The notes under the pieces were generated by a model. The model saw only the letters and a program-made list of their open reading frames with translations. It was not told the origin of the DNA and ran no database searches. From NCBI GenBank assembly GCA_964650255.1, contig CAZYQT010000006.1, positions 1 through 24,000 of the forward strand: DNA of 24,000 nt, read 5' to 3'. This document shows, piece by piece, positions 1,267 through 22,930 of this stretch (positions are counted from its first letter, which is position 1; each line of letters starts with the position of its first letter). The position numbers were made by a program, and so were the translations under genes. Source of the DNA: an uncultured Candidatus Saccharibacteria bacterium. Lineage in GTDB: Bacteria > Patescibacteriota > Doudnabacteria > UBA920.

Positions 1267-3486
1267 ATGGGACGTAAAAAAAAGCGGTCGCGCGATAATG
1301 ACGAGTCCGAATCTTCCATCCTTAAGTCCATCCCGAAACCAAAATTAGATTTAGCTTCTGAAAGCAAACGCGGCATTGCTGTGGTTGTTTTCGTAGTTTT
1401 AGCTGGGATTACAGCTTTGGCCATTCTCGATATTGCCGGTGGCTTGGGCCAATTTTTGAAAAAATTATTTTTTTTGTTGTTCGGAATCATCGCATACTTA
1501 ATGCCATTAGTTTTTTTGCTAATCGCTTATTTGTTGTTTAAGAGTACTCCAGACGAAGAAAACAAACACCCATACTTCCGCACTTACTTGGGAATGTTTT
1601 TAAGTGCTGGGAGCATAGCGGGATTGATCCACTCTTTTTCTATGGATGAACTTAATGGTGCAGTGGCCTTGGCAAATGCTGGTAAAGCAGGCGGCTGGCT
1701 CGGCGCATTATTTGGCGGGCCAATAATTGGGGCCTTTAAATTTTGGGCAGGTGATTTAATTTTAATTGGTATTCTCGTAATTGGAATTGTCATCACTTTG
1801 AATTTGTCGCCAATGCTGTGGTTCAAGAAAAAAGATGAAGAAGCAATACCAGAAACAACAGGGGAGAAAGTGAAAATTAATTCTTTGGCAGAGGCAGTTT
1901 TAGCGGCAGATAATAATACAGATGAAGAAAACGATGAAGAAGAACCAAGGCCAAAATTAACTCCTTCGATTAACTTAACTCCATCTGGCCCAAGCAAAGA
2001 AGATGAAGCGATTTCGAAAATGGAATCAATTATTATTGAAGACCGCCGCGACTGGAAGCTACCACCGTTTGATTTACTTGATGATAATAAAACCGAAGTT
2101 GATTCTGGAAACATTGAAAGTAATGTAACTATCATTCAAAAAACTTTAGCAGACTTTGGTATTGATGTAGAAATGGGAGAAGTGAATGTTGGCCCAACTG
2201 TGACGCAGTACACTCTTCGTCCAGCCACTGGTGTGAAGCTTTCACAAATTGCTGCTTTGCAAAATGATTTGGCGCTCGCGCTCGCTGCACACGCAATTCG
2301 TATGGAGCTACCTATCCCAGGCAAGGCGTTGGTCGGTATTGAAGTGCCAAACAAATCTACCGCGATCGTACGCCTTCGCGAAGTGATGCAAACTTCAGAC
2401 TTTGTGAACAACAAGGGCAAGCTCGCGCTCGCGCTTGGCCGCGATGTTGCTGGTCGCCCAATGATTGCTGACCTTGCCAAAATGCCGCACATGTTAATTG
2501 CTGGTGCTACTGGAACCGGAAAATCTGTGGCCATCAACAGTTTGTTTATTTCTTTGCTTTACCGCAACACTCCACAAGACATTAAGTTTATTGTGGTAGA
2601 CCCGAAGCGCGTGGAGCTTAATATGTACAACGGCATTCCGCATCTTTTGACTCCTGCCATTACTGAATCCGACAAAGCAGTTAATGCACTTAAGTGGGCT
2701 GTGGCGGAAATGGAAAGACGTTACAAGCTACTTGCCGAAGCTGGTAATCGAAACATTGCTGACTACAATGCTGCCACTGAACTGCATTTGCCTTACATTG
2801 TTATTATTGTTGATGAGTTAGCCGACCTTATGGCTGTTGCCCAGCAAGATGTTGAAGCTGCAATTGTGAGGCTGGCGCAAATGGCTCGTGCGGTTGGTAT
2901 TCACCTTATTCTTGCAACCCAGCGCCCAAGCGTGGAAGTTATTACTGGACTTATTAAAGCAAACATTACTTCGCGCGCTGCATTTGCTGTGGCATCGCAA
3001 GTCGACTCTCGTACTATTTTGGATTCATCGGGTGCAGAAAAACTTTTGGGCAATGGAGACATGTTGTTTGTTTCAGCAGAATTTAATAAGCCAAAGCGCG
3101 TACAAGGAGCTTTCGTTGGTGAACAAGAAGTGCGCAAAGTCGTTGACTTCTTTAAGAATCAAGCTGGTGCAGTAATTTACAACGAAGAAGTTACAGAAAA
3201 ACCAAAACGTGGTTTGGGAATTCCAGGTATGGGTGGTGGTGATGGCGGTAGTGATGAAGACGATTTGTTTGATGCAGCCAAGGAAGAAGTGATGCGTGCT
3301 GGAAAAGCTTCTGCTTCTTTGCTCCAGCGTCGCTTGCGTATTGGTTACGCCCGCGCTGCTCGTCTCCTCGACATATTAGAAGACAGGGGAATTATCGGGC
3401 CAGGTGATGGTGCCAAGCCTCGCGAAGTGTACGCCGTGTCCGATGCGGAACGCGCGGAGTATGGCAGCGAGACCGAAGAAGTTTAA
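1267..3486 (+). CDS. ftsK: DNA translocase FtsK/SpoIIIE
   Basis: N-terminal polytopic membrane region and an acidic linker. Motor domain with Walker A GATGTGKS and Walker B IVIIVDELADL. C-terminal gamma winged-helix (SLLQRRLRIGYARAARLLDILE). Confidence 0.95.
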   Translation: MGRKKKRSRDNDESESSILKSIPKPKLDLASESKRGIAVVVFVVLAGITALAILDIAGGLGQFLKKLFFLLFGIIAYLMPLVFLLIAYLLFKSTPDEENKHPYFRTYLGMFLSAGSIAGLIHSFSMDELNGAVALANAGKAGGWLGALFGGPIIGAFKFWAGDLILIGILVIGIVITLNLSPMLWFKKKDEEAIPETTGEKVKINSLAEAVLAADNNTDEENDEEEPRPKLTPSINLTPSGPSKEDEAISKMESIIIEDRRDWKLPPFDLLDDNKTEVDSGNIESNVTIIQKTLADFGIDVEMGEVNVGPTVTQYTLRPATGVKLSQIAALQNDLALALAAHAIRMELPIPGKALVGIEVPNKSTAIVRLREVMQTSDFVNNKGKLALALGRDVAGRPMIADLAKMPHMLIAGATGTGKSVAINSLFISLLYRNTPQDIKFIVVDPKRVELNMYNGIPHLLTPAITESDKAVNALKWAVAEMERRYKLLAEAGNRNIADYNAATELHLPYIVIIVDELADLMAVAQQDVEAAIVRLAQMARAVGIHLILATQRPSVEVITGLIKANITSRAAFAVASQVDSRTILDSSGAEKLLGNGDMLFVSAEFNKPKRVQGAFVGEQEVRKVVDFFKNQAGAVIYNEEVTEKPKRGLGIPGMGGGDGGSDEDDLFDAAKEEVMRAGKASASLLQRRLRIGYARAARLLDILEDRGIIGPGDGAKPREVYAVSDAERAEYGSETEEV

Positions 3487-3525: not shown

Positions 3526-4290
3526 TTAAATTTTTTCCCAAAACCCTTTAAACATTTCACGTAAGTTTTTAGCCATGACTGCATCATGCGTTTCTACTAA
3601 ATAGTGTGGATGTTGGTTAGTAACTATAAACAAAACATAATCACCAAGAACTGCATGTGTAGCAGTAAAGTCCACGGATTTATCCCAATACTTCACTTGT
3701 CGATTTTTATTCTTCACAGCATCGGCAATTTCTTTTTCCGAAGGTTTATTGTTTGTAATTAAGCGTGTACCAAAATCCTCTGGAAAAATTTCCCAATGAT
3801 GCTCAACCCAATCTTTATATTCTTGTAATATTGATGCATCTTGAAATCCCCACCAGTTTTTCTCATTAATGTTTTTGGCACTCTCAATCCAAATAGGTAA
3901 TTGCTTAAATAGAAAATCTTTTAATTGTGGCTCATCAATAAAACGAATTTTAGGAACAGAATACTGCTTTGATTTTGGCAAAGCCTGTAATTCCAAGATT
4001 GCCTGCTCAATAGCAGTCTTTTTTTGTTCAAGTTCCTGTTCTTGCGATTTATATAGAGTGCGGAGTTCTTCGGGGGGCGTGGCTGTGTAGTAGGTGGTGG
4101 TGCCGCCCAAGTCCTCTTGGATAATTCCTTTTTTGATAAGCTCCTTAGAAACGCTGTAAACAGTAGTTCTATTGATTTTTGATACTCGGGAAACGTCTGC
4201 AGCTGATAGTTTACCATTCTCTTGAATGCACAAATATACGGCGATTTCCTTATCTGTGAATCCTAATTCTTGCAAATATTCGTTTAGCAT
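3526..4290 (-). CDS. TrmB-family transcriptional regulator
   Basis: The N-terminal winged HTH is typical of TrmB (LGFTDKEIAVYLCIQENGKLSAADVSRVSKINRTTVYSVSKELIKKGII), followed by a coiled-coil linker and a C-terminal effector-like domain. Confidence 0.8.
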   Translation of the reverse strand: MLNEYLQELGFTDKEIAVYLCIQENGKLSAADVSRVSKINRTTVYSVSKELIKKGIIQEDLGGTTTYYTATPPEELRTLYKSQEQELEQKKTAIEQAILELQALPKSKQYSVPKIRFIDEPQLKDFLFKQLPIWIESAKNINEKNWWGFQDASILQEYKDWVEHHWEIFPEDFGTRLITNNKPSEKEIADAVKNKNRQVKYWDKSVDFTATHAVLGDYVLFIVTNQHPHYLVETHDAVMAKNLREMFKGFWEKI

Positions 4291-4296
4291 AGACTA

Positions 4297-4305
4297 ATTA
4301 TAGCA
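4297..4305 (-). promoter_or_regulatory. Extended -10 (TGCTATAAT) placed 6 nt before the trmB-like ATG; candidate leaderless promoter
   Basis: Minus strand reads TGCTATAAT-tagtct-ATG. Confidence 0.5.
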
Positions 4306-4389
4306 TGTTGTTGGAGATAAATCAACATATATTTTATGTTATAAATAAGCCATTTATCTTAAAATAATCTAACATTATTTGGAATACTC

Positions 4390-4418
4390 TTGACAAAATG
4401 TCAAAAACTTGATATACT
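4390..4418 (+). promoter_or_regulatory. Near-consensus sigma70 promoter of the hammerhead-containing operon, with an operator-like palindrome over the -35
   Basis: TTGACA (4390-4395)-17 nt-TATACT (4413-4418). The perfect palindrome TTGACAaaaTGTCAA spans 4390-4404. Confidence 0.7.
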
Positions 4419-4482
4419 GGTCTCAACAAAAATAAATTCTGGTGTAGCGAGCCAAAAATACGCAAAATTTTAGGAGGAAAAA

Positions 4483-4875
4483 ATGGTACCAAGTTTTGAC
4501 AGTAATGGCTTAGCTGATGGCCTTACGGAAATGGATGAGGCGTCCAAAGCTCGATTGGAAGAATGGAAGGAAGCAATTAACAAACTTCCTGATACTGAGG
4601 ACTTTGATACAGACACACTCTCCAATCAAGCTTACATCTTAATACAAGGGGCGCTAGATGTAGGTTTTGATGAACATAGATCCCATGATGTGTTCTATCA
4701 ATTCAATCAAGGTGATCGAGCTCTCTTAACTGAAAGTTGCAATTGCAGTAGCGGTAGTCTGTGCCCGGCTAGACAAGCGAAAGTTAGATTCGATGGAACA
4801 TGGAATGAAGCTTACGCCGAGATGGTCAAGCTTTTGAAAAATAAAGCTAACCAAATTCCACAACCACCTGTGTGA
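4483..4875 (+). CDS. Hypothetical acidic protein, 130 aa (operon ORF1)
   Basis: AGGAGG lies 6 nt upstream of the ATG. No family recognised. Confidence 0.65.
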   Translation: MVPSFDSNGLADGLTEMDEASKARLEEWKEAINKLPDTEDFDTDTLSNQAYILIQGALDVGFDEHRSHDVFYQFNQGDRALLTESCNCSSGSLCPARQAKVRFDGTWNEAYAEMVKLLKNKANQIPQPPV

Positions 4876-4898
4876 AAACAGTTAAATCTTTTAGGTTC

Positions 4899-4971
4899 GA
4901 GAGGTCCTATTAAAACCTCTCACTGTCTCGAAGTGAATACTTCGACTGATGAGCTCAAAAGAGCGAAACAG
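4899..4971 (+). ncRNA. 7-bp hairpin (4899-4921) plus type III hammerhead ribozyme (4923-4971), copy 1
   Basis: CUGUC|UCGAAG-UGAAUA-CUUCGA-CUGAUGA-GCUC-AAAA-GAGC-GAAA-CAG. All invariant core positions are present, with a GUC cleavage triplet. Predicted cleavage falls after C4927. Confidence 0.88.
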
Positions 4972-5045
4972 AAAATCCAGCATGTGACTGGTTCGCGGGC
5001 TGATAAGGATCGCGCGAGACATTAAGCAATAGGAGGAAATTAAAT

Positions 5046-5417
5046 ATGCAAAATTTGTTGACTAACAAATTAGAAGCTGACTTAGCAGCTGTAGTTGCCA
5101 CTGAAGCATTTAATGATGCTGCGCACGCTGCTGAGTGGAAATTTGTTGAGTATGTGAACATTAAACAATTTAATGGTTCCATATCAGCAACTGCTATATA
5201 TTCATCAGATGATGTGATATTAGTATACGCTAATGGCTATGGTGACAAAAACCATTTTGCTCATTCGTTTTTGAGGCACACCTTGGAGAAGGCGGGCTTC
5301 GCGTATGCTGAGATAAATCTATATTTATCAATTCACACTGGATTAAGGCCTTGTTTAGTAATTTCTGATTACGATAAGTCTGTGAGTCCAGCTGAGTATA
5401 TATCTAGCAGGCTTTAA
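5046..5417 (+). CDS. Hypothetical protein, 123 aa (operon ORF2, bracketed by the two ribozymes)
   Basis: AGGAGG at 5031-5036 lies 9 nt upstream of the ATG. No family recognised. Confidence 0.65.
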   Translation: MQNLLTNKLEADLAAVVATEAFNDAAHAAEWKFVEYVNIKQFNGSISATAIYSSDDVILVYANGYGDKNHFAHSFLRHTLEKAGFAYAEINLYLSIHTGLRPCLVISDYDKSVSPAEYISSRL

Positions 5418-5649
5418 TTGCGCTGTTTAAATAAACAGTTCGCAATATCCCAGAGCTTAGTCTGACTGGGGGATATCTAATTTAATGCGCTATGAAAGAC
5501 CGAAAAGCGCGAAGCAGTATGTGACTGTGGACAGTGAATTAGACTAAATATCATGTCGTGAGACAGCAATATTTAGAAATTAATAAGCTCCACGTGATAG
5601 CCGTTTGTCTATCAACCTCCCCGCTCAAGTAGGTTTAAACCTTGAGCAC

Positions 5650-5722
5650 AGGAGATTCTAATAAAATCTCCTTCTGTCTCGAAGTGAATGCTTCGACTGA
5701 TGAGGCCAAAAGGACGAAACAG
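5650..5722 (+). ncRNA. 7-bp hairpin (5650-5672) plus type III hammerhead ribozyme (5674-5722), copy 2
   Basis: CUGUC|UCGAAG-UGAAUG-CUUCGA-CUGAUGA-GGCC-AAAA-GGAC-GAAA-CAG. The core is identical to copy 1. Stem II has one G.A mismatch and one compensated pair. Predicted cleavage falls after C5678. Confidence 0.8.
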
Positions 5723-5755
5723 ACAAATATGATAGTCAATCAATAGGGGGTGTGT

Positions 5756-6163
5756 ATGTTAAAGATTGAAAATGATGAGTTTAAGAACTTTCCTGTTGAT
5801 CAGCAGGTAAATATTATCCATAAAGCAATTATGGCTGATGATGATATAGAATTTTTCTTTTATGAACTGAAATGCGGTGTGGAAGAAAAAAAGTCCATTT
5901 ACAAGGCTCACTGTAAAAATCAAACGAGAGATGGGTCAATAGTTCGAATGTTTGAAGCTATGGATTTAAGTGATGTTGAAAAACAGGAATTAGCAGAGTG
6001 CGCGATTACTGCAATTATCTCAAATAAATTTTTGAGCTCTGCAAGATATAGATATGACATGCTCTCAAAATATCTTAGTTCAGACAAGCAGGCAAAGTTT
6101 TCTGCCGTGCTTGAGGATCGTGAGCATCAATCTTCATTGCGTAAAAGTGTTCTAGGTATATGA
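5756..6163 (+). CDS. Hypothetical protein, 135 aa (operon ORF3)
   Basis: The track starts at GTG 5750. I prefer ATG 5756 because AGGGGG (5745-5750) would then be a properly spaced SD. No family recognised. Confidence 0.6.
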   Translation: MLKIENDEFKNFPVDQQVNIIHKAIMADDDIEFFFYELKCGVEEKKSIYKAHCKNQTRDGSIVRMFEAMDLSDVEKQELAECAITAIISNKFLSSARYRYDMLSKYLSSDKQAKFSAVLEDREHQSSLRKSVLGI

Positions 6164-6184
6164 ACCAAAACACGCATTTATTTT

Positions 6185-6212
6185 GCCGGTTGTTAATTCA
6201 GCCGGCTTTTTT
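6185..6212 (+). terminator. Intrinsic terminator of the three-ORF operon
   Basis: GCCGGUUG-uuaauu-CAGCCGGC (8 bp including one U.G) followed by TTTTTTgTTTT. Confidence 0.7.
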
Positions 6213-6233
6213 GTTTTCCCAGTTTAGTCTGGA

Positions 6234-6324
6234 AAACAGAAGGATATTTGCTAAGCAGGCAGTCACGGTAAGCGCAGCCGCGAAGCGGCGTGAGCACTGT
6301 CTGCGTGCAGATATCCTTCTGTTT
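6234..6324. repeat. Long imperfect GC-rich inverted repeat (extended hairpin), function unknown
   Basis: Perfect 14-bp outer arms: AAACAGAAGGATAT at 6234-6247 and ATATCCTTCTGTTT at 6311-6324. Inner 9-bp stem GCAGGCAGT/ACTGTCTGC. Apical GCCGC-gaa-GCGGC. Confidence 0.6.
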
Positions 6325-6356
6325 CATCAGTCTCAAAATATGCTATGATAAATGAT

Positions 6357-7337
6357 ATGCCAATTGAATTTGAAACAAAAAAACTGTCTATGGAGACCCT
6401 GGGGGAGTACCTGGCTGCTGTGCGCAACGAGCTAGGCCTGACTTTAGAAGAGGTTTCTCAGAAAACCGGGGTTTATGAAAAATTCATCCATTATATAGAG
6501 ACTGGAAAGTACCATTTATTACCTCCTGGGGTGTATGTACTTGGTTTCCTTAAAAAACTGGCAGGAGTTTACAAGATTTCAGCTGATACTCTCCTGGAAC
6601 AATATCGCAAAGAGCTAGGTATAGTAGAGCATGCGGCCTCTGAGCGACTGAGGGCCAAAAAAACTTGGAAAGAGCGTTTTTCCAAAATCACCATAACACC
6701 TAAACTGCTCACTGTTACTGGCGGCGGGGTAGTCGCTGTGGTCGCTTTCTTCTATATAGTGTTCCAAGTGTTCGCTATTAATAAGACTCCTGCTCTTACT
6801 ATAAACGAACCTAAGAATGATGCAGTAATTTCTGGCACATCAGTGAACGTTGCAGGAAAAACTGAGCCAGGCATAGTGGTATCTATAAACGGACAAAATG
6901 TGTTTGTAGATCAATCCGGCGATTTTCATACCACCATTGGTGTAGCTCCTGGACAAAAAGAGTTACGAATTGATGCGTCCAATAAATTCGGCAAGAAAAA
7001 TGAGCAGGTACTAGCCCTGCGCGTTGAAGAAGAGCCGCATGTGGCTGGGGTGGAAACTACGGTGCCATCAGAATTGCAAATGGAAATTAAGTTTACTAAA
7101 GCTACAAAGATTATTGTAAACAAAGACGGTACAGAGCTACCGCTTGAGCAGGTTCCTAAGGGGGCAGTAAAACAGGTTACAGCCCAGGACAAAATTAGTT
7201 TAACTACTTTCGATGCGGGTAACACACAGATAACTTTGAATGGAAAACCTGTTGGTACAATTGGAAAAGTAGGTGAAAAAATTACTATTCCTTTTTCAAA
7301 AGAAGCGGCTTCGCTAATAGAACAGGCATCAGAATAA
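6357..7337 (+). CDS. RodZ-like protein: XRE-type HTH, one transmembrane helix and a RodZ_C/DUF4115-like C-terminal domain
   Basis: HTH LGLTLEEVSQKTGVYEKFIHYIETGK. TM helix GGGVVAVVAFFYIVFQVFAI. The C-terminus (ITLNGKPVGTIGKVGEKITIPF) resembles RodZ_C. I prefer ATG 6357 over 6345 because TGCTATGAT at 6341-6349 looks like the -10. Confidence 0.65.
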   Translation: MPIEFETKKLSMETLGEYLAAVRNELGLTLEEVSQKTGVYEKFIHYIETGKYHLLPPGVYVLGFLKKLAGVYKISADTLLEQYRKELGIVEHAASERLRAKKTWKERFSKITITPKLLTVTGGGVVAVVAFFYIVFQVFAINKTPALTINEPKNDAVISGTSVNVAGKTEPGIVVSINGQNVFVDQSGDFHTTIGVAPGQKELRIDASNKFGKKNEQVLALRVEEEPHVAGVETTVPSELQMEIKFTKATKIIVNKDGTELPLEQVPKGAVKQVTAQDKISLTTFDAGNTQITLNGKPVGTIGKVGEKITIPFSKEAASLIEQASE

Positions 7338-7426: not shown

Positions 7427-8515
7427 ATGGCAAAAAAAACTAAAGAACCAAAGACCACTGCACCAAAGGCAACTTCCACAGCCGGCAAGTGGGGAGCAGT
7501 GGAAAGCGCAATGGATCAAATTCGCGATAAATTCGGCGATGGTAGCATCATGAAAATTTCCGATACCCAAAAACTGAACGTAGAAGCAATTCCTACTGGC
7601 AGTATTAGTTTGGATATGGCCCTGGGTGTTGGCGGAATTCCTAAGGGGCGCATTGTAGAAGTGTATGGTCCAGAAAGTTCTGGTAAAACAACTTTAACTT
7701 TGCACATGATTGCTGAAGTGCAAAAGAAAGGTGGCTTGGCGGCATTTATTGATGCAGAGCACGCGCTCGACCCTGACTACGCAAAACGTATCGGAGTTAA
7801 TTTAGAAGATTTGTTAATTTCTCAACCAGACAGTGGTGAGCAAGCTTTAGATATTACAGAGACTTTGGTGCGGAGTAATGCGTTAGATTTAATTGTTGTT
7901 GACTCAGTAGCAGCATTAACACCGCGTGCGGAAATTGAAGGTGAAATGGGTGCGTCGCACATGGGGCTTCAAGCAAGACTTATGTCGCAGGCGCTTCGTA
8001 AGTTAACTGGAATTATTTCTAAATCCAACACGACTGTCATTTTCATTAACCAGATTCGTATGAAAATTGGGGTAATGTTTGGTAACCCAGAAACAACTAC
8101 TGGTGGGAATGCTTTGAAGTTCTATGCATCGGTTCGAGTGGAAATTCGCCGCAGCGCGCAAATTAAAAATGGTGATAAAATTATTGGCAACCGTACCAAG
8201 GCCAAGGTGGTGAAGAACAAAGTGGCGCCGCCGTTCAAAGTTGCTGAGTTTGATATTATGTACAACGAAGGTATTTCTTCTGAAGGAGATGTTCTCGACA
8301 CTGGCTTATTGTTTGAAATAATTAAGAAGAACGGTAACTCGTATTCTTACAAAGACATTAAGCTTGGGGTTGGCCGCGAAACAGCGAAAACTTTTCTAAA
8401 AGAAAATAAGGATATCTTTGAGCAAATAGATAAAGATTTGCGTACCCAGCTAGATAGCGGAGCTGGTATTCCTGAAAAGTTGGTAGAAGCTGAAGAAGAA
8501 ATCGACGAAGATTAA
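7427..8515 (+). CDS. recA: Recombinase RecA
   Basis: Full-length RecA with Walker [10 protein letters not shown], the L1/L2 region ([32 protein letters not shown]) and an acidic C-terminal tail. Confidence 0.97.
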
Positions 8516-15966: not shown

Positions 15967-16827
15967 ATGAATTTTATCAAAAAATTATCATCAGCAGTTT
16001 TATTGGCAGCAGCTGCTTTGGTGTTGATCGCGCCTAGCTTTTTGTTAACTCCACGGACTGTCCAGGCTGAATCTTGTAGCCCATTATTTTTAGTGCGACC
16101 TTCTCAGAATCAAGCTGGCTCCGACGGCGTGATTGTTAAACCAGCAGACGCTAAGAAAGTTTATTTAGATGTAAAATTTAGTCTTAACGGCCCGAGCACA
16201 TGTCAAGGACCAGCATACGTTGTGGCCAAGTGGAACAATGCAAAAACTACAATCACAAATAATGTAGACAAAGTTTTTAATTACACCAGCGTCCCCGCAA
16301 GAGAAGGCGTGTATAGAATTGAACTACAGATTCCGAATAGTGGTTTCGGTAAAGAGGTTACTGTAACTGTTGCCGATGACGTTCTTCATCCGCCAGCCGG
16401 TGGGATTGGGACTGAGAATGGAAGTCACGTGCAGCCAACTGACAAGCCAACGAATGGTAGCAAGGGCGGGTTTGTACCTTGTGGCAATACTGCAGATAAT
16501 CCTTGCCAAATTGGTCATCTATTTTCCGCATTTATTGTAATCATCAATTATCTAATGGCCATGGCAGGGTTTGTGGCAGTACTAGCAATTATTTTTGCCG
16601 GGTTTATGATGATCTATTCTCAAGGACAAGAGAAGCTTAAAGAAGCCAAGGGCCGTTTTACAGGAGCAATCTTTGGGTTGGTGTTAGTGGCGGCGGCATT
16701 TGTCTTGATTAACTCTCTTTTCGCTGGCAGCTTGAGTATTGGTGTAAAAGATGGCGGTAAAATTTTATCAGACCCTCTCGAGTATATTAATACGAGAAGT
16801 AGTACTACTAATTCAAATACAAGATAA
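15967..16827 (+). CDS. Pilin-like paralog P1: signal peptide, beta-rich N-terminal domain and C-terminal VirB2/TrbC-like two-helix module
   Basis: Signal peptide ...TVQA|E. The C-terminus reads IINYLMAMAGFVAVLAIIFAGFMMIYSQGQEKLKEAKGRFTGAIFGLVLVAAAFVLI. Confidence 0.75.
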   Translation: MNFIKKLSSAVLLAAAALVLIAPSFLLTPRTVQAESCSPLFLVRPSQNQAGSDGVIVKPADAKKVYLDVKFSLNGPSTCQGPAYVVAKWNNAKTTITNNVDKVFNYTSVPAREGVYRIELQIPNSGFGKEVTVTVADDVLHPPAGGIGTENGSHVQPTDKPTNGSKGGFVPCGNTADNPCQIGHLFSAFIVIINYLMAMAGFVAVLAIIFAGFMMIYSQGQEKLKEAKGRFTGAIFGLVLVAAAFVLINSLFAGSLSIGVKDGGKILSDPLEYINTRSSTTNSNTR

Positions 16828-16832
16828 TACCT

Positions 16833-17231
16833 ATGAAGCATTTACTAGCGCTGAATAATAATTCCGGCGGCATCAAAATAAATAGCAACACCGGCAATAA
16901 TTCAAATCAGACTGGTTCTGGTTCGGGCACTGGTACTGGTGGTAATGCCAATAATTTTACTTTGGTTAAACCGGGTAAGATTACTGATGTTTTCAATGGC
17001 AAGTCTTTGCTTCAAATTGGAACTATGTTCATCAATTTTCTTTTGGCCATGATTGTAATTGCTGCAGTGGTGGTAATTGTTATTGCCGGATTCAAGATGG
17101 TTTTAGGTGGTGCCAACGAATCGCAAATCGCCAAGCAAAAAAAAGCCATTGTCTATGCCATTGCTGGTTTGGTGGTAGCGTTTATGTCGTTTGCCATTGT
17201 CCAAATTGTTCAAAACTTTATTCAGAAATAA
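16833..17231 (+). CDS. Pilin-like paralog P2: N/G/S/T-rich N-terminus with no obvious signal peptide
   Basis: The C-terminus reads FINFLLAMIVIAAVVVIVIAGFKMVLGGANESQIAKQKKAIVYAIAGLVVAFMSFAIVQIV. Confidence 0.7.
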   Translation: MKHLLALNNNSGGIKINSNTGNNSNQTGSGSGTGTGGNANNFTLVKPGKITDVFNGKSLLQIGTMFINFLLAMIVIAAVVVIVIAGFKMVLGGANESQIAKQKKAIVYAIAGLVVAFMSFAIVQIVQNFIQK

Positions 17232-17232
17232 A

Positions 17233-18153
17233 ATGCGAAAAACTGTGCAAAATTTGAAACTATTTTTTTACAGGCTGGGGCTAACTATTTTTGTCGCGTT
17301 CTTATTGATGGGGAGTAGTTCTACAACTGCCCATGCTCAAGCCAGCGCTACAGCCACAGACGGACGATGTGTAACAATCAAAGTATTTCTAATTAATTCA
17401 GCGGCCAACACCCCAGCCAATATAACCAGAATTAAAATTTCTGATGCTGGTAAATACGCTCTTCAGGTTGATATCAAAACTAATTTCGGCTGTACAGTTA
17501 ATGGAAAGTACACGTTAAAAGGTCAAACTTATGAGAATCAAAATGGTACCAATACTACCCCGCAAGAAACTTTTTATTTTGCTAACAGGCAGCCTGTCAC
17601 AACAAATGATTTTGCAAAGCGAACGGATGCCTTTGGCAGGCCAGCACATCCTTATTCGTATGTATATACTCTAGATTATGATAGCGACGATCTTTCCACT
17701 AATCTTTCCGCTCATATTACAATTACTTTTACGGACGACAAGGGTAATTCAGGTTCAACCCCAGGAAGCGGCGGTGGCAGTGGTAGCGGCAGCGGTACGG
17801 GCAGTAACAGTAATGTTCCTCCAAACAACAGTGTTCCGAATGAAGATATAAAAACTGATACAGATTTTACTTTAGTTAACTTAGATGATCCAATTGGCAC
17901 TTTTGATAATTTACTAAATTTCGGCTCAGTTCCGGAAGCAATTGTTAGCCTCATCAGGATATTGTTTATATTAATTGGTATTTCCGCAGTGATAGTCATA
18001 ATTATTGCTGGGTTCCGAATGGTTGTAGACAGCGGAAATGAGACGCAAATGAAGAAAGCCAAGGAAGCAATTACGTGGTCAATCGTTGGTCTAATAGTTT
18101 CTATTTTAGCGTTTAGTATTGTGGCAATTATTCAAAGAATTATTCAAGGTTAA
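17233..18153 (+). CDS. Pilin-like paralog P3: signal peptide, beta-rich domain, Gly/Ser linker and pilin module
   Basis: The ATG at 17233 sits 1 nt after the P2 stop codon, so the tracked upstream extension is an artifact. Signal peptide ...TAHA|QA. The C-terminus reads LIRILFILIGISAVIVIIIAGFRMVVDSGNETQMKKAKEAITWSIVGLIVSILAFSIV. Confidence 0.75.
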   Translation: MRKTVQNLKLFFYRLGLTIFVAFLLMGSSSTTAHAQASATATDGRCVTIKVFLINSAANTPANITRIKISDAGKYALQVDIKTNFGCTVNGKYTLKGQTYENQNGTNTTPQETFYFANRQPVTTNDFAKRTDAFGRPAHPYSYVYTLDYDSDDLSTNLSAHITITFTDDKGNSGSTPGSGGGSGSGSGTGSNSNVPPNNSVPNEDIKTDTDFTLVNLDDPIGTFDNLLNFGSVPEAIVSLIRILFILIGISAVIVIIIAGFRMVVDSGNETQMKKAKEAITWSIVGLIVSILAFSIVAIIQRIIQG

Positions 18154-18154
18154 A

Positions 18155-18595
18155 ATGATGATAAAATTTTCTAAATTTATTTGTGCAGTAGCAACGGCTT
18201 TGGCGTTGCTTGTTCCCCAAATTGCTTTAGCTGCAAACAATAACAATGGTAGTGCTAATGGCTCCGCTGGTAAGACAGACACCTGCGCGACTCTTAAGCA
18301 ACAGTTTGATAATGCCAATGGCTCCAATGTGATTGCTAATATTCCCCAGTACTGCCGCATAGAATTTGTTTATCAAAAATTTATTAATACTGCTCTGTAT
18401 TTCATTGGTATTGTGGCAGTAATTGCCGTAATATACGGCGGTTATTTGTACATGACGGCTGGTGGCAACGCAGCCCAAGTTAAAAAGGGCCGGTCGGTAT
18501 TGACTTGGGCAATAATTGGCTTAGTAGTAGTGCTGGCGGCTGCTGTAATTGTGAATGTGGTGGTGAACTTGCTTGTTGAAAACAAATTTGTATAA
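18155..18595 (+). CDS. Pilin-like paralog P4 (short form)
   Basis: The ATG at 18155 sits 1 nt after the P3 stop codon. Signal peptide ...QIALA|A. Module: FINTALYFIGIVAVIAVIYGGYLYMTAGGNAAQVKKGRSVLTWAIIGLVVVLAAAVIV. Confidence 0.75.
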   Translation: MMIKFSKFICAVATALALLVPQIALAANNNNGSANGSAGKTDTCATLKQQFDNANGSNVIANIPQYCRIEFVYQKFINTALYFIGIVAVIAVIYGGYLYMTAGGNAAQVKKGRSVLTWAIIGLVVVLAAAVIVNVVVNLLVENKFV

Positions 18596-18667
18596 TCCGC
18601 AAGTTTTCAGTAAAATATAGATACGTTACATATCATATAAATCCACACTTGAAAGGTGGTGAAAACA

Positions 18668-19105
18668 TTGAAACAAACCTTAAAAAAACTTAATTGGTTG
18701 AACGTTGCACTATTTGTAATAGTAACTGTAGTATCAATCGCTCCAGTTCTAGCTACTGCTGCGGCTCCCCGCTTAGCAGACGCTCAACTCATCAACCAAT
18801 TCGTTAATAACTGTCCTGCTGATACTGGAGTGCGTTGTTCCGAAGGGAGCATTGCTTCTATTTTCCGCTTGATCATCAACTGGGCGTTGGCAATTGCCTT
18901 TATCGCTGCTGTAATTATGCTTATCTATGGTGGTTTCCGTTACATCACTTCTGCTGGTAACTCTGACCAGGCTACTACAGGTAAGACTGCAATCGTGAAT
19001 GCTTTGATTGGTATAGTTATTATCGTTCTATCATACATTATTGTTCAGATCGTTTACCGCTTCGTTGCTGGTAATGGCACTGGCGGAGTTCTCGGCGGAC
19101 CGTAA
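18668..19105 (+). CDS. Pilin-like paralog P5 (short form), probable TTG start
   Basis: TTG 18668 lies 8 nt after AAAGGTGG and aligns with the TTG start of P6 (MKQTLKKLNW vs MKLENKKFNW). Module: IINWALAIAFIAAVIMLIYGGFRYITSAGNSDQATTGKTAIVNALIGIVIIVLSYIIVQIVY. Confidence 0.75.
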   Translation: MKQTLKKLNWLNVALFVIVTVVSIAPVLATAAAPRLADAQLINQFVNNCPADTGVRCSEGSIASIFRLIINWALAIAFIAAVIMLIYGGFRYITSAGNSDQATTGKTAIVNALIGIVIIVLSYIIVQIVYRFVAGNGTGGVLGGP

Positions 19106-19119
19106 TTAAAAACAAGAAT

Positions 19120-19521
19120 TTGAAATTAGAAAACAAAAAATTTAATTGGACTAGTGTTGCATCAATGTTGGTGGCTTTAGCGATAGTTTTGGCCCCAGCG
19201 GTGTTGCCTCATGTTGCAATGGCTCAGCAAGGAATAGGGCAAATGCCTTGTCCTCGCGACCTGGGATATTTGTGTACTGATGGCAGCGTTGCCTCTATAT
19301 TTAGATTAATTCTAAACTGGGCAATGACTATTGCTTTCCTTGCAGCAGTTATCTATTTAATCTACGGTGGATTTCAATACATCTCTTCCGCAGGTAATAC
19401 AGATAAAGCAACCAAGGGACGCGCAACAATTGTGAATGCCATTATTGGCATAGTAATAATTGTCTTGTCATATACTATAGTTCAAATTGTGTACAACTTT
19501 GTTGTCAGCCCTACTCGGTAG
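19120..19521 (+). CDS. Pilin-like paralog P6 (short form), TTG start
   Basis: Closest paralog of P5. Module: ILNWAMTIAFLAAVIYLIYGGFQYISSAGNTDKATKGRATIVNAIIGIVIIVLSYTIVQIVY. Confidence 0.75.
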   Translation: MKLENKKFNWTSVASMLVALAIVLAPAVLPHVAMAQQGIGQMPCPRDLGYLCTDGSVASIFRLILNWAMTIAFLAAVIYLIYGGFQYISSAGNTDKATKGRATIVNAIIGIVIIVLSYTIVQIVYNFVVSPTR

Positions 19522-19610
19522 GTGACATAGAAATGGTTTTCCCGCACTCGCTGCGGGATAGCTCCGGGAATAAAATTTAATATTTTACTTCCGGAATTAT
19601 TAAAACAATT

Positions 19611-20027
19611 ATGACAAAAAAAATCTTTTTACCATTAGTCGCTACAATGATCTTCGTTACTTCGATTTTCATGGGTCCGACTTTGGCTGTATCGCAAGTA
19701 CACGCGCAGAGCACAACTAACACTGGCGACAAAGTCCAGGATGGACTAACTGATATTGGCGCAGCTTATCCTGCCGGCGCAAAGCAAGAGCGCAATTTAA
19801 AAGACGTTATTCGCAAAGTTATTAACTGGGCGTTGTATTTCGCTGCTATCATTGCCGTTATCTTTATAATCATTGGTGGATTTATGTACATAACTTCTGC
19901 TGGTGATCCTGGTAAAGCAACTAAAGGCCGCACTACATTGGTTAATGCTTTAATTGGTTTAACAATTATCGTACTATCTTACTTGATTGTTCAGATTGTT
20001 TACAACTTCCTGATCAACCGAACATAA
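19611..20027 (+). CDS. Pilin-like paralog P7 (short form)
   Basis: Signal peptide ...QVHA|Q. Module: VINWALYFAAIIAVIFIIIGGFMYITSAGDPGKATKGRTTLVNALIGLTIIVLSYLIVQIVY. Confidence 0.78.
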   Translation: MTKKIFLPLVATMIFVTSIFMGPTLAVSQVHAQSTTNTGDKVQDGLTDIGAAYPAGAKQERNLKDVIRKVINWALYFAAIIAVIFIIIGGFMYITSAGDPGKATKGRTTLVNALIGLTIIVLSYLIVQIVYNFLINRT

Positions 20028-20042
20028 TTCTAGTCATTTAAC

Positions 20043-20867
20043 GTGAAAATTTCGCAAAAATTTTTGAATAAATTTTCCATGGCCATGCTACTGCTATTGA
20101 GCATGGCTTTTTTGGGTGTTGGTTTTGTATTTAAAGCCCATCCAGCTGAGGCAGCAACGATTGATGTGTGTATCAATCGTAGCAATGGCAATCTAGATTA
20201 CCCAACTAATAATCAGTGTCCAACAAATTTTGAATTAGCTACTGGAATCTCCACTCAGTATGGCGGTGTTTGCATTGCTCAAGAAGAAGATACAGGGCGT
20301 TTCGGAATAGTTTATCCTACTGGCGAATATGAATTGGATAGAAACGGTAAAACTTGTGTCTTAAGTTCAGACCACGCAACCCCAATTGGTGATTTTGTAA
20401 GATTGAGAACAACTGGAACCGGTGGTGGTAGTGGGGACCCTGTTGATCCAGGTGGTAGTGGTTCAGGGCCAGGTTCTGGTTCCGGCAGTGGAAGCGGTTC
20501 AGGCTCAGGGTCTGGATCGGGATCATCGACAACAAGTAATGCTGCCTGCGATCCACCACAAGAAGGCTTCCATAAGGTTGGGCCACTTTGTGTTCCCAAT
20601 AGCCCATTCACTAACAAAGATGCTCCGATTAACTCTCCAACAGCAGCTGGGCTTGCCGTAAAGATCATCAAAATAGCATTGTATTTTGCAGGCATAGTGG
20701 CAGTAATTATGATGATTATTGGTGGTTATCAGGTCATGACTGCTGGCGCGAATGCAACCCAAGCCACTGATGGTCGCAAAACCCTTACCAATGCTATTAT
20801 TGGCTTAGTCATAGTGATTTTGTCGTACATTGTCATCCAGGCTATTACTAATTACCTCACTAAATAA
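20043..20867 (+). CDS. Pilin-like paralog P8: signal peptide, Cys-containing N-terminal domain, long Gly/Ser linker and pilin module
   Basis: GTG start; an internal ATG start is possible. Signal peptide ...PAEA|A. Linker: (GS)n. Module: IIKIALYFAGIVAVIMMIIGGYQVMTAGANATQATDGRKTLTNAIIGLVIVILSYIVIQAI. Confidence 0.75.
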   Translation: MKISQKFLNKFSMAMLLLLSMAFLGVGFVFKAHPAEAATIDVCINRSNGNLDYPTNNQCPTNFELATGISTQYGGVCIAQEEDTGRFGIVYPTGEYELDRNGKTCVLSSDHATPIGDFVRLRTTGTGGGSGDPVDPGGSGSGPGSGSGSGSGSGSGSGSGSSTTSNAACDPPQEGFHKVGPLCVPNSPFTNKDAPINSPTAAGLAVKIIKIALYFAGIVAVIMMIIGGYQVMTAGANATQATDGRKTLTNAIIGLVIVILSYIVIQAITNYLTK

Positions 20868-20944: not shown

Positions 20945-21031
20945 GCCGGAGTGGCGAAATTGGCAGACGCACCAGCCTTAGGAGCTGGCGGGGGCAACCC
21001 TGTGGAGGTTCAAGTCCTCTCTCCGGCACCA
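20945..21031 (+). tRNA. tRNA-Leu, anticodon UAG, class II with long variable arm and encoded CCA
   Basis: Acceptor GCCGGAG/CTCCGGC. Anticodon stem CCAGC/GCTGG with loop CTTAGGA. Variable arm of about 15 nt. T arm GGAGG-TTCAAGT-CCTCT. Discriminator A followed by CCA. Confidence 0.92.
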
Positions 21032-21052
21032 TCAATATTATTAAATTTTTTT

Positions 21053-22930
21053 ATGGGTAAAATTATTAAAAATATCATCTTAATCCTGATTGGATTTTTG
21101 ATTATCTCTGTGGTGATTGCCGCCTTTACCACTCACAAAGAAACCAAGGTAGTAGCGTTGTCCGAAGTTGGGCAAATGATTAAAGATGATAAAGTTGAGA
21201 CTTTAGAAGTTAGCTCCTCGGAATTAGAAGTTAAACTTAAGGGTGATAATACAAAACAAAAAGCCAACCTTGGTTTGAATACAGACATCCCGAAGTATTT
21301 TGTAGACAGTGGTGTGCCAGCAGACAAATTGGCGAATGTAAAAATTGAATTTAAAACTCCAAGTGCTGCTAGCGAAGTTGCTGGCGCGATTTTGCCATTC
21401 TTAATTCCGTTCGTGTTAATTGCTTTGTTCATTTATTTCCTAATGCGCCAAGTGCAGGGTTCAAACAATCGCGCTTTAACTTTTGGACAGAGTTCAGTGA
21501 AGTTATCTGATGAGCAAAAGAACAAAGTGCGTTTTGCAGATGTAGCTGGTGCGAAAGAGGCAAAAGAAGAGTTGTCCGAAATTGTGCAGTTCTTAAAATT
21601 TCCACAAAAGTTTTTAGCGTTAGGTGCAAAAATCCCTAAAGGTGTTTTGTTGCTTGGTTCTCCGGGTGTTGGTAAGACTATGTTGGCTCGTGCAGTTGCC
21701 GGGGAAGCGAACGTACCGTTCTTCCATATTAGTGGTTCTGAGTTCGTAGAAATGTTTGTCGGTGTTGGTGCATCTCGTGTGCGTGATTTATTTAAGAAAG
21801 CAAAGCGCAATGCTCCTTGTATTGTGTTCATCGATGAAATTGATGCTGTTGGTCGCCAGCGGGGAGCAGGGCTCGGCGGTGGTCATGATGAACGCGAACA
21901 AACCTTGAACCAAATCTTAGTTGAGATGGATGGTTTTGAAACAGACACAAATGTAATCGTAGTAGCAGCGACCAACCGTCCAGATGTTTTGGATCCTGCG
22001 CTTCTTCGTCCCGGCCGGTTTGATCGTCAGGTCATTTTGGATTTACCAGACATTAATGACCGAGAAGCGATTTTGCAAATCCACAGTAAAAACAAACCGT
22101 TTGGCACTGGCGTAAATCTTCGCAAGATTGCTGAACGCACCCCTGGATTTTCAGGAGCCGATTTAGCTAACTTAGTTAATGAAGCGGCGATTTTGGCGGC
22201 TCGTACAGATAAAAAAGTTATAGATAACGAGGATTTAAAGGAAGCGATTGAAAAGATTGTTGTGGGTCCATCTCGCAAAAGCCACCTAATGTCTGATTAT
22301 GAAAAGAAGGTAACAGCTTACCACGAAGGTGGTCATGCCTTGGTGGGGGCGGTGTTGCCAGAAGCTGACCCTGTCCATAAAGTGACTATTCTTTCACGTG
22401 GTCGTGCTCTTGGATATACTTTAAAGTTGCCGGTTGAAGACAAGCACATGCATACCAAACAAAGTTTCTTGGATGAAATTGCATCCGCCATGGGTGGGTA
22501 TGCAGCAGAAAAATTGGTGTTTGGTGAATTAACCACGGGCGCCTCTAATGACCTGGAAAAGGCAACGAAATCTGCTCGACGATTGGTAACCCAGTTTGGT
22601 ATGAGTGATGTTATGGGCCCTGTTGTGTTGGGCGATCGCCACGAAAATGTTTTTCTGGGACGTGATCTTGGCGAACAAAGAAATTACAGTGAAGCTACTG
22701 CTCAACAAATTGATGCCGAGGTGCGCCGAATTTTAGTTGATGCAGAAGAGCGAGCCACTCAAATTATGACTCAGCACCGTGCCTATTTAGATATCATCGC
22801 AGATCGGTTGGTGAAAGAAGAAACTTTGGAACAGGAGGCCTTCACGGAAATAGTTAAGGATATTATCCCTCCAGATAAAAAGATGGTTCCTGAATTCAAG
22901 AATACTGACTTAGATAACGAAGTGGAGTAG
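21053..22930 (+). CDS. ftsH: ATP-dependent zinc metalloprotease FtsH
   Basis: N-terminal transmembrane helices, Walker A GSPGVGKT, Walker [10 protein letters not shown] and the HEGGHA zinc site. The tracked start at 20951 overlaps the tRNA, so ATG 21053 (MGKIIKNI...) is the real start. Confidence 0.95.

Follow-up and report, generated by a model that had tools for sequence, protein, structure and literature searches.

We analyzed a 24,000-nucleotide (nt) stretch of DNA, referred to here as the window, from an uncultured Candidatus Saccharibacteria bacterium (contig CAZYQT010000006.1, assembly GCA_964650255.1). The window contains three small plus-strand open reading frames (ORFs), ORF1 to ORF3, which are mutually unrelated by sequence comparison, and a type III hammerhead ribozyme in each of the two gaps between them (HH1 and HH2) (Table 1). 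One promoter-like site and one terminator-like site bracket ORF1 to ORF3, and the genes therefore look like one tricistronic unit, ORF1-HH1-ORF2-HH2-ORF3, spanning positions ~4390 to 6216. No promoter-like or terminator-like sites were found on the plus strand between the three genes. In two related operons that are described below (L246 and L247), a TTGACA...TATACT/TACAAT motif was seen by eye at the equivalent place, and a near-identical terminator closes the operon in both. We take 4390-4418 to be a putative promoter on these grounds.

Table 1. Features of the hammerhead-containing operon and of the adjoining regulator gene
Feature	Positions	Strand	Description
TrmB-like winged-helix regulator gene	3526-4290	-	Divergent; Pfam PF01978 TrmB, E = 9.9e-15; adjoins the operon in L246 and L247
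Promoter-like site	4390-4418	+	TTGACA-17-TATACT plus TG extension; 11/12 consensus matches; likely start of the tricistronic transcript
ORF1	4483-4875	+	130 amino acids (aa); conserved ~130-aa family, CxC...CPA...GTWxE
Hairpin 1	4899-4921	+	7 bp (GAGAGGU/ACCUCUC); stops 1 nt short of HH1 stem III; minimum free energy (MFE) fold
Hammerhead 1 (HH1), type III	4923-4971	+	Stem III CUGU/ACAG, stem I 6 bp, stem II 4 bp; predicted cleavage after C4927
RNA predicted to be freed by double cleavage	4928-5678	+	751 nt; HH1 body, two-hairpin leader, Shine-Dalgarno sequence, ORF2, structured 3' region, hairpin 2, UCUGUC>p
ORF2	5046-5417	+	123 aa; AGGAGG at 5031-5036; orphan
Structured 3' untranslated region (3'-UTR) element of ORF2	5447-5650	+	~200 nt; resembles a decayed HH1 module plus leader, catalytic core destroyed
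Hairpin 2	5650-5672	+	8 bp (AGGAGAUU/AAUCUCCU); stops 1 nt short of HH2 stem III
Hammerhead 2 (HH2), type III	5674-5722	+	Predicted cleavage after C5678; G.A mismatch weakens stem II
ORF3	5756-6163	+	135 aa; orphan; GGGGG Shine-Dalgarno-like run just upstream
Intrinsic-terminator-like hairpin	6185-6216	+	GCCGGTTG...CAGCCGGC, then T-run; likely operon end

Direct reading gives HH1 as CUGUC followed, across the cleavage site, by UCGAAG-UGAAUA-CUUCGA-CUGAUGA-GCUC-AAAA-GAGC-GAAA-CAG. HH2 has the same layout, with CUGUC followed by UCGAAG-UGAAUG-CUUCGA-CUGAUGA-GGCC-AAAA-GGAC-GAAA-CAG. Both copies carry the catalytic core C3-U4-G5-A6-N7-G8-A9/G12-A13-A14 as CUGAUGA...GAAA, and both have a cleavage triplet of the NUH type, GUC, at 4925-4927 and 5676-5678, in which C4927 and C5678 are the H17 residues. 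An A-U pair (A15.1-U16.1) closes stem III in each. Stems I and II are closed by loops, stem III is open, and the Rfam alignment spans the full model from 1 to 54. When the whole window was searched on both strands, HH1 matched RF00008 (Hammerhead_3) with 40.2 bits (E = 1.1e-5) and HH2 with 36.5 bits (E = 1.3e-4). The initial annotation had predicted two same-strand hammerheads with cleavage after C4927 and C5678, and direct reading and the RF00008 matches bear out these sites.

Two matches to the core pattern CTGATGA-N6-30-GAAAC were found in the window, where 0.10 would be expected, and none of 100 shuffles reached two. A custom covariance model of 127 relatives, whose seed contained HH1 and HH2 themselves, scored them at 75.0 and 68.3 bits, respectively. 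Neither this model nor the Rfam E-value scan found a third hammerhead in the window. Each ribozyme, together with the hairpin just upstream of it, lies within a 75-nt direct repeat of 83% identity. By the criteria of sequence and structure other than the Rfam gathering score, HH1 and HH2 are genuine type III hammerheads. At gathering thresholds, Rfam reported a tRNA alone in the whole window, and the hammerheads surfaced only with an E-value threshold. Because their scores lie under the gathering score, routine annotation will miss copies of the HH1/HH2 type.

Since C4927 and C5678 are the H17 residues of the GUC triplets, double cleavage would free exactly 4928-5678 from the transcript. The length of 751 nt and the ends proposed for this RNA, a 5'-OH and a 2',3'-cyclic phosphate, are sound, in that the coordinates are read directly and the end chemistry is that established for hammerheads. 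Its proposed contents also hold, namely, the HH1 body, AGGAGG at 5031-5036, ORF2, a 261-nt 3' region, and the hairpin at 5650-5672. The segment has an MFE of -226.6 kcal/mol (z = -6.3 against 20 shuffles), and its MFE fold re-forms stem III across the two ends by pairing ACAGA (positions 41-45 of the RNA) with the 3' UCUGU. This hybrid stem III of the excised RNA has 6 bp, compared with 4 bp for HH1's own stem and 5 bp for that of HH2.

The hairpins that precede the two ribozymes differ from one another by three compensatory pair changes on direct reading, and hairpin 1 is kept in both L246 and L247. After cleavage, the ORF1 RNA would have hairpin 1 as its 3'-terminal stem-loop, and the 751-nt RNA would have hairpin 2; before cleavage, each hairpin could stack on the very short stem III. 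The 3'-UTR element of ORF2 is also structured. Local alignment of 5461-5583 with 4918-5043 gave a score of 46, compared with 26.2 +/- 4.8 (maximum, 41) for shuffles. By eye, the element is largely identical to L246 3633-3850, where the upstream ORF is unrelated, and a two-sequence consensus fold with L246 contains six compensatory pairs. No Rfam family matched 5447-5650. This element could be a relic ribozyme module that is reused as a structured 3' UTR, or it could be an unknown RNA.

L246 and L247 are syntenic operons that were reached through ORF1 homologues, with ORF1 identities of 70% and 42%, respectively. The order in L246 is TrmB (minus strand), a 73-aa ORF, the ORF1 homologue, a hairpin and hammerhead, a 114-aa ORF, the conserved 3' UTR, a 51-aa ORF, and the terminator. 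From the ORF1 stop to the next start, an interval that contains the hairpin, HH1, and the leader, L246 is 90% identical to the window. The differences are compensatory and concentrated in stems I and II of the hammerhead, with nearly identical flanks, a pattern that points either to stems that evolve fast or to a copy that was replaced by another. The L246 hammerhead (3150-3204) has CUGAAGA (N7 = A), and its cleavage triplet is GUU; hammerheads tolerate both variations. HH2 is missing from L246. The 114-aa ORF of L246 (3273-3617) is unrelated to ORF2 (E = 4.2), yet the leader before it and ~200 nt after it are conserved. Judged from these alignments, the ORF2 slot is a case of gene swapping inside conserved untranslated flanks, Shine-Dalgarno sequence included. 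L247 keeps the FtsK...TrmB(-)...RodZ-RecA-DEDDh neighborhood and has one hammerhead module, which lies between a 110-aa and an 86-aa ORF and is differently placed relative to the ORF1 homologue. No hammerhead is present in the loci of more distant ORF1 homologues, which lie beside rpsJ. So the hammerhead module is maintained, whereas the two-hammerhead unit around the middle gene is not. No two of the three species have the same set of small genes in the slot between TrmB and RodZ.

To place HH1 and HH2 among their relatives, we scanned one genome per GTDB species with the pattern CTGTC-N16-22-CTGATGAG-N8-14-CGAAACAG, which gave at least 119 loci. The scans are not random samples, and the family counts that follow were taken from fixed 8-kb slices around the matches listed. 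Of the 119 labels, 86 (72%) are of Patescibacteria or the candidate phyla radiation (CPR), 17 read "bacterium," and 16 name other phyla; the CPR labels include Saccharibacteria, Paceibacterota, Parcubacteria, and Kaiser-, Taylor-, Nomura-, and Vogelbacteria. The family is built compactly, with a 6-bp stem I capped by a 6-nt UGUGUA-like loop and a stem II of 3 to 4 bp with an RAAA loop. Across 127 distinct copies, HH1 and HH2 included, 99.5% of the 1,778 cells at the 14 pairs of the fold hold standard pairs. In 521 cells both sides have changed, a number that none of 500 shuffles reached and of which slid controls fell far short. A fifth stem III pair is present in 72% of copies.

The covariance model found 221 copies in 118 loci; these matches were used in place of those of a regular-expression scanner, which found 182. 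Two or more copies occur in 56 of the 118 loci and one copy per 8-kb slice in the other 62, counts that are set partly by the search pattern and by the fixed slices. Neighboring copies lie on the same strand in 99 of 103 pairs, at spacings of 271 to 4,605 nt. The median spacing is 664 nt, and the 751 nt of the window is therefore typical. Copies sit a median of 84 nt past the stop of a same-strand ORF and 51 nt ahead of the next same-strand start. The ORFs that follow are short (~110 aa) and functionally unrelated, and no recurrent Pfam family was found in 147 of them (at most two members per family). A hairpin of at least 5 bp ends 0 to 4 nt before stem III in 76% of copies, compared with 26% of control positions, and the 45 nt upstream of hammerheads are more stable than controls (-13.1 versus -8.6 kcal/mol; P = 8e-21). 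Copies within one locus often have identical stems (for example, in L036, L016, L018, and L047). The densest array, in a contig labeled Dehalococcoidia (L016 1-8000; CAXXBX010000061.1), packs ten hammerheads, all on one strand, into 8 kb; each is followed by a small ORF, and Pfam matched none of these ten ORFs. The same hairpin and type III hammerhead architecture was found in at least 120 copies on IMG/VR viral contigs (L125-L244).

Sequences beyond the ribozyme also recur. GTTCTTT(R)AA stands 4 to 8 nt after ACAG in 29% of genome-derived hammerheads, compared with 0.7% of background windows (L005-L123; examples are L105 5479-5495, L082, and L028), and TCTTT follows 45% of them versus 4.4% of background. 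The GTTCTTT motif is not present in HH1 or HH2 and is rare in the viral copies listed (5/120). Many viral copies share instead a GGTAGTGTCTTCAAAGACACTATCC-like upstream hairpin and a AAACATTAATTTAAAT-like downstream sequence in place of GTTCTTT. We considered GTTCTTT as a promoter -35 box or a ribozyme-pairing motif and rejected both, as inspection by eye revealed no -10 partner and no convincing pairing, and the window copies do without the motif. Long near-perfect hairpins with arms of 15 to 25 bp trail GTTCTTT before the next gene in L050, L029, L040, L027, L093, L111, and L066; in many CPR loci they sit 20 to 100 nt after the hammerhead. A metagenome scan for the exact stem I and core of the window returned one unrelated contig, and viral scans for its specific hairpin and its 3'-UTR hairpin returned no matches. 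The contigs that carry ORF2 (L001-L004) are collinear with the window, and no contig ends of L002-L004 coincide with the cleavage sites, which would have been a possible RNA-derived signal.

Given this arrangement, we consider it probable that self-cleavage turns the tricistronic RNA into three separately stabilized linear mRNAs, a form of operon punctuation or insulation. ORF1 to ORF3 would be transcribed as one ~1.8-kb RNA from the promoter (~4390-4418) to the terminator (~6185-6216), and HH1 and HH2 would fold cotranscriptionally and cut themselves after C4927 and C5678. Each upstream product would then end in a 7- to 8-bp hairpin and N-CUGUC with a 2',3'-cyclic phosphate, which should slow 3' exonucleases. 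Each downstream product would begin with a 5'-OH, and stem I of the compact ribozyme body would keep its first six nucleotides paired; such a start should be a poor substrate for 5'-end-dependent RNases. The outcome would be three linear monocistronic mRNAs whose stability and translation are independent of their neighbors, with the 751-nt ORF2 RNA as the middle product. In bacteria, stem-loops at the 3' end slow mRNA degradation by PNPase and RNase II/R, and paired or nonmonophosphorylated 5' ends are poor substrates for 5'-end-dependent RNases. Because such ends hinder RNases, the module should make the stability of each cistron independent and provide each with a defined leader, much as synthetic ribozyme insulators do. 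In insulators of the RiboJ type (sTRSV hammerhead plus hairpin), a hammerhead before the cistron likewise removes the upstream context and leaves a structured 5'-OH leader. In the engineered RiboJ, the hairpin is downstream of the ribozyme and exposes the ribosome binding site, whereas in the natural arrangement of the window it is upstream and would stay on the preceding RNA.

There is precedent for this in the clustered hammerheads of bacteria and prophages (Perreault et al. 2011, PMC3088659), for which the proposed role is single-gene mRNA processing. As in those clusters, the window has several same-strand copies, here two, in one predicted polycistronic unit, and each hammerhead flanks one or few genes of varying identity, here single and unrelated ones. 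Processing of polycistronic RNA by such clusters has been proposed but never proven, although tandem arrays cleave in vitro and one array expressed in E. coli also cleaved in vivo (PMC3088659; review, PMC6765202). The initial annotation had offered the uncoupling of the three cistrons by cleavage as a more modest alternative to a circular RNA; it is the better-supported reading and matches the 2011 proposal (PMC3088659). The window differs from the 2011 clusters in several respects. Its locus is in a housekeeping chromosomal context (FtsK, RodZ-like protein, RecA) and not in the prophage or integrase neighborhood that is frequent, but not obligatory, in that class; its lineage is CPR/Patescibacteria-like and was unavailable in 2011; and its hairpins abut stem III, a feature on which PMC3088659 is silent (the word "terminator" is absent from it). 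Compared with the RF00008 type III ribozymes of viroids, satellites, plants, and animals, HH1 and HH2 have the same core, NUH triplet, topology, and loops closing stems I and II, but their stem III is very short (4 to 5 bp) and they are encoded by DNA in a bacterial operon and not in a replicating RNA.

Several observations weigh against operon punctuation. Both HH1 and HH2 score under the RF00008 gathering score of 48.5. The hammerhead fold of HH2 (-18.9 kcal/mol) is less stable than a competing MFE fold (-21.5 kcal/mol; gap, 2.6), the corresponding values for HH1 being -23.4 and -25.0 kcal/mol, and none of the other aligned copies (127 in all) has a mismatch at the pair that is G.A in stem II of HH2. 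Because of this mismatch and the more stable competing fold, HH2 cleavage may be slow. The search pattern itself fixes CUGUC and ACAG and the slices were of a fixed 8 kb, so that the invariance of stem III and the single-copy counts arise partly by construction. Additionally, in vivo cleavage, the stabilizing roles of the end structures, and a benefit to the cell are steps that we infer. Where RNase J is present, a 5'-OH can mark an RNA for decay, as in the glmS precedent, so that cleavage could on balance destabilize the downstream cistrons.

The HH2 mismatch and alternative fold also bear on whether one or both motifs, HH2 being the likelier, are inactive look-alikes, in which case there would be at most one cut and no 751-nt species. 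The scores under the Rfam threshold and the absence of HH2 from L246 point the same way. However, the invariant core, the GUC triplet, and the three stems are present in both copies, HH2 reaches 68.3 bits in the family model, stem I should form first during transcription, and natural hammerheads with a much shorter stem II are active (PMC3088659). We therefore consider inactivity very unlikely. A selfish or relic repeat, a module that spreads or homogenizes within genomes and phages while its cleavage is tolerated or incidental and the cassettes turn over, would account for the 83% identity of the HH1 and HH2 modules over 75 nt between unrelated genes, for the decayed third copy in the ORF2 3' UTR, and for the same module between different genes in L247. 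The identical stems often shared within a locus, the abundance of the architecture in viral contigs, and the ORFans that make up most of the neighboring genes would also fit. On the other hand, compensatory changes hold stems I and II paired both between orthologues and across the 127 copies, which implies selection on the active fold, though selection could act for the element itself. Moreover, no transposase, integrase, or reverse transcriptase was annotated near the hammerheads in the window, and the window-specific hairpin and 3'-UTR sequences were not found in viral contigs. On balance, we judge a selfish repeat to be unlikely as the main explanation.

The initial annotation had also raised the possibility that the 751-nt RNA becomes a circle, as in retrozymes and viroids. 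The 3' CUGUC>p would re-pair with its own 5' ACAG and be sealed by the reverse ribozyme reaction or by an RtcB-type ligase. The product would be a stable circular ORF2 mRNA that resists exonucleases, or else a mobile RNA intermediate. The geometry is favorable, since the type III topology joins both ends in one helix, the MFE fold of 4928-5678 closes through that helix, and the hybrid stem III is longer than either ribozyme's own. With a 5'-OH and a 2',3'-cyclic phosphate, the RNA would have ends that suit RtcB or hammerhead ligation, and many copies in the family lie as same-strand pairs one gene apart. The locus resembles retrozymes and viroid-like RNAs in having a unit several hundred nucleotides long that is bounded by two type III hammerheads on the same strand and whose ends meet in stem III. 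Comparison nevertheless gave the circular ORF2 RNA no support. The two-cut unit is not conserved, L246 and L247 having a single hammerhead each, and just over half of the family's loci (62/118) have a single copy per slice. In 41 tandem pairs, the hybrid helix averaged 4.78 bp, compared with 4.89 bp for the copies' own stems and 4.56 bp for random partners; hybrid helices are thus about as long as those of random partners, and there is no selection signal on the junction helix of a circle. The hairpin next to each cleavage site is what a linear 3' end would be expected to have, and a stem III of 4 to 6 bp favors product release. Unlike retrozymes, the locus has no long terminal repeats, only the shared 75 nt, and its unit is unique and protein coding, has a Shine-Dalgarno sequence, and lacks a second copy in the window or the collections searched. 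Neither long repeats bounding a noncoding multicopy unit nor paired hammerheads conserved as a unit were found, and the pairing is not conserved in the orthologous loci. The window contains no RtcB-sized ORF and no RtcB Pfam match. Perreault et al., who considered circles, sought circular or spliced products of bacterial tandem hammerheads and found none (PMC3088659). Circularization of the ORF2 RNA is, in our estimate, highly improbable. We give still less credence to its extension to the whole family, in which hairpin-hammerhead modules would delimit exchangeable single-gene RNA cassettes in CPR and phages and double-cut units would be circularized by the ribozyme or RtcB. If true, units such as 4928-5678 would yield translatable or mobile RNA circles, and the unrelated ORFans between near-identical modules and the ORF swap between leader and 3' UTR would be explained.

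The genes of the operon have few relatives. No match was found for ORF1, ORF2, or ORF3 in Pfam, NCBIfam, PADLOC, or PHROGs. ORF1 has 13 homologues (best E = 4.9e-53), and W28, CxC...CPA, and GTWxE are conserved features of its family in the window, L246, L247, L248, L249, and L251. Members occupy the TrmB-RodZ slot in close relatives and stand beside rpsJ (S10) in more distant ones; ORF1 also weakly matches repeat regions of giant beta-propeller/TIG proteins. A search of 5.8 billion clustered proteins for homologues of ORF2 retrieved ORF2 alone. A single-sequence AlphaFold model gave it, at moderate confidence, an alpha/beta fold (predicted local distance difference test [pLDDT], 69; predicted template modeling score [pTM], 0.62), and a Foldseek search of the Protein Data Bank (PDB) with this model found no match at E <= 0.001 (template modeling [TM] score, ~0.3). 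For ORF3, just one variant, 96% identical, was found.

The operon and the divergent TrmB-like gene are flanked by FtsK (1267-3486) upstream and by a RodZ-like protein (6345-7337) and RecA (7427-8515) downstream. Further genes in the window encode a DEDDh exonuclease, LspA, a ComM-like ATPase, a sugar-binding protein, a tRNA, and FtsH. At least five paralogous ORFs at 15967-20867 each have a C-terminal T4SS_pilin domain (PF18895), which fits a Patescibacteria-type genome. The 62-aa ORF called at 6160-6348, which runs across the operon terminator, is unlikely to be a gene, and the FtsH ORF (20951-22930) begins inside the tRNA (20945-21028), so its true start must be further downstream. A blastn search of 4300-6300 against 50,697 phage records returned no match; judged by its gene content, the window is bacterial chromosome and not phage.

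Taken together, these results describe no new kind of element but an arrangement already known from bacteria and phages, with clusters reported in 2011. We found no papers linking hammerheads to Patescibacteria, Saccharibacteria, or the candidate phyla radiation in a literature library that is incomplete, the word "hammerhead" did not occur among the papers listed for names of the Parcubacteria type, and the enrichment of hammerheads in CPR may be unreported so far. This enrichment, the hairpin abutting stem III, and arrays of up to ten hammerhead-separated ORFans may be new results at the level of the family. What hammerheads do for bacteria has yet to be settled (review, PMC6765202). For that question, the locus offers a clean comparative setting, a nonprophage housekeeping operon with conserved boundaries in which an orthologous module is kept by compensatory changes while the neighboring genes are swapped between species.

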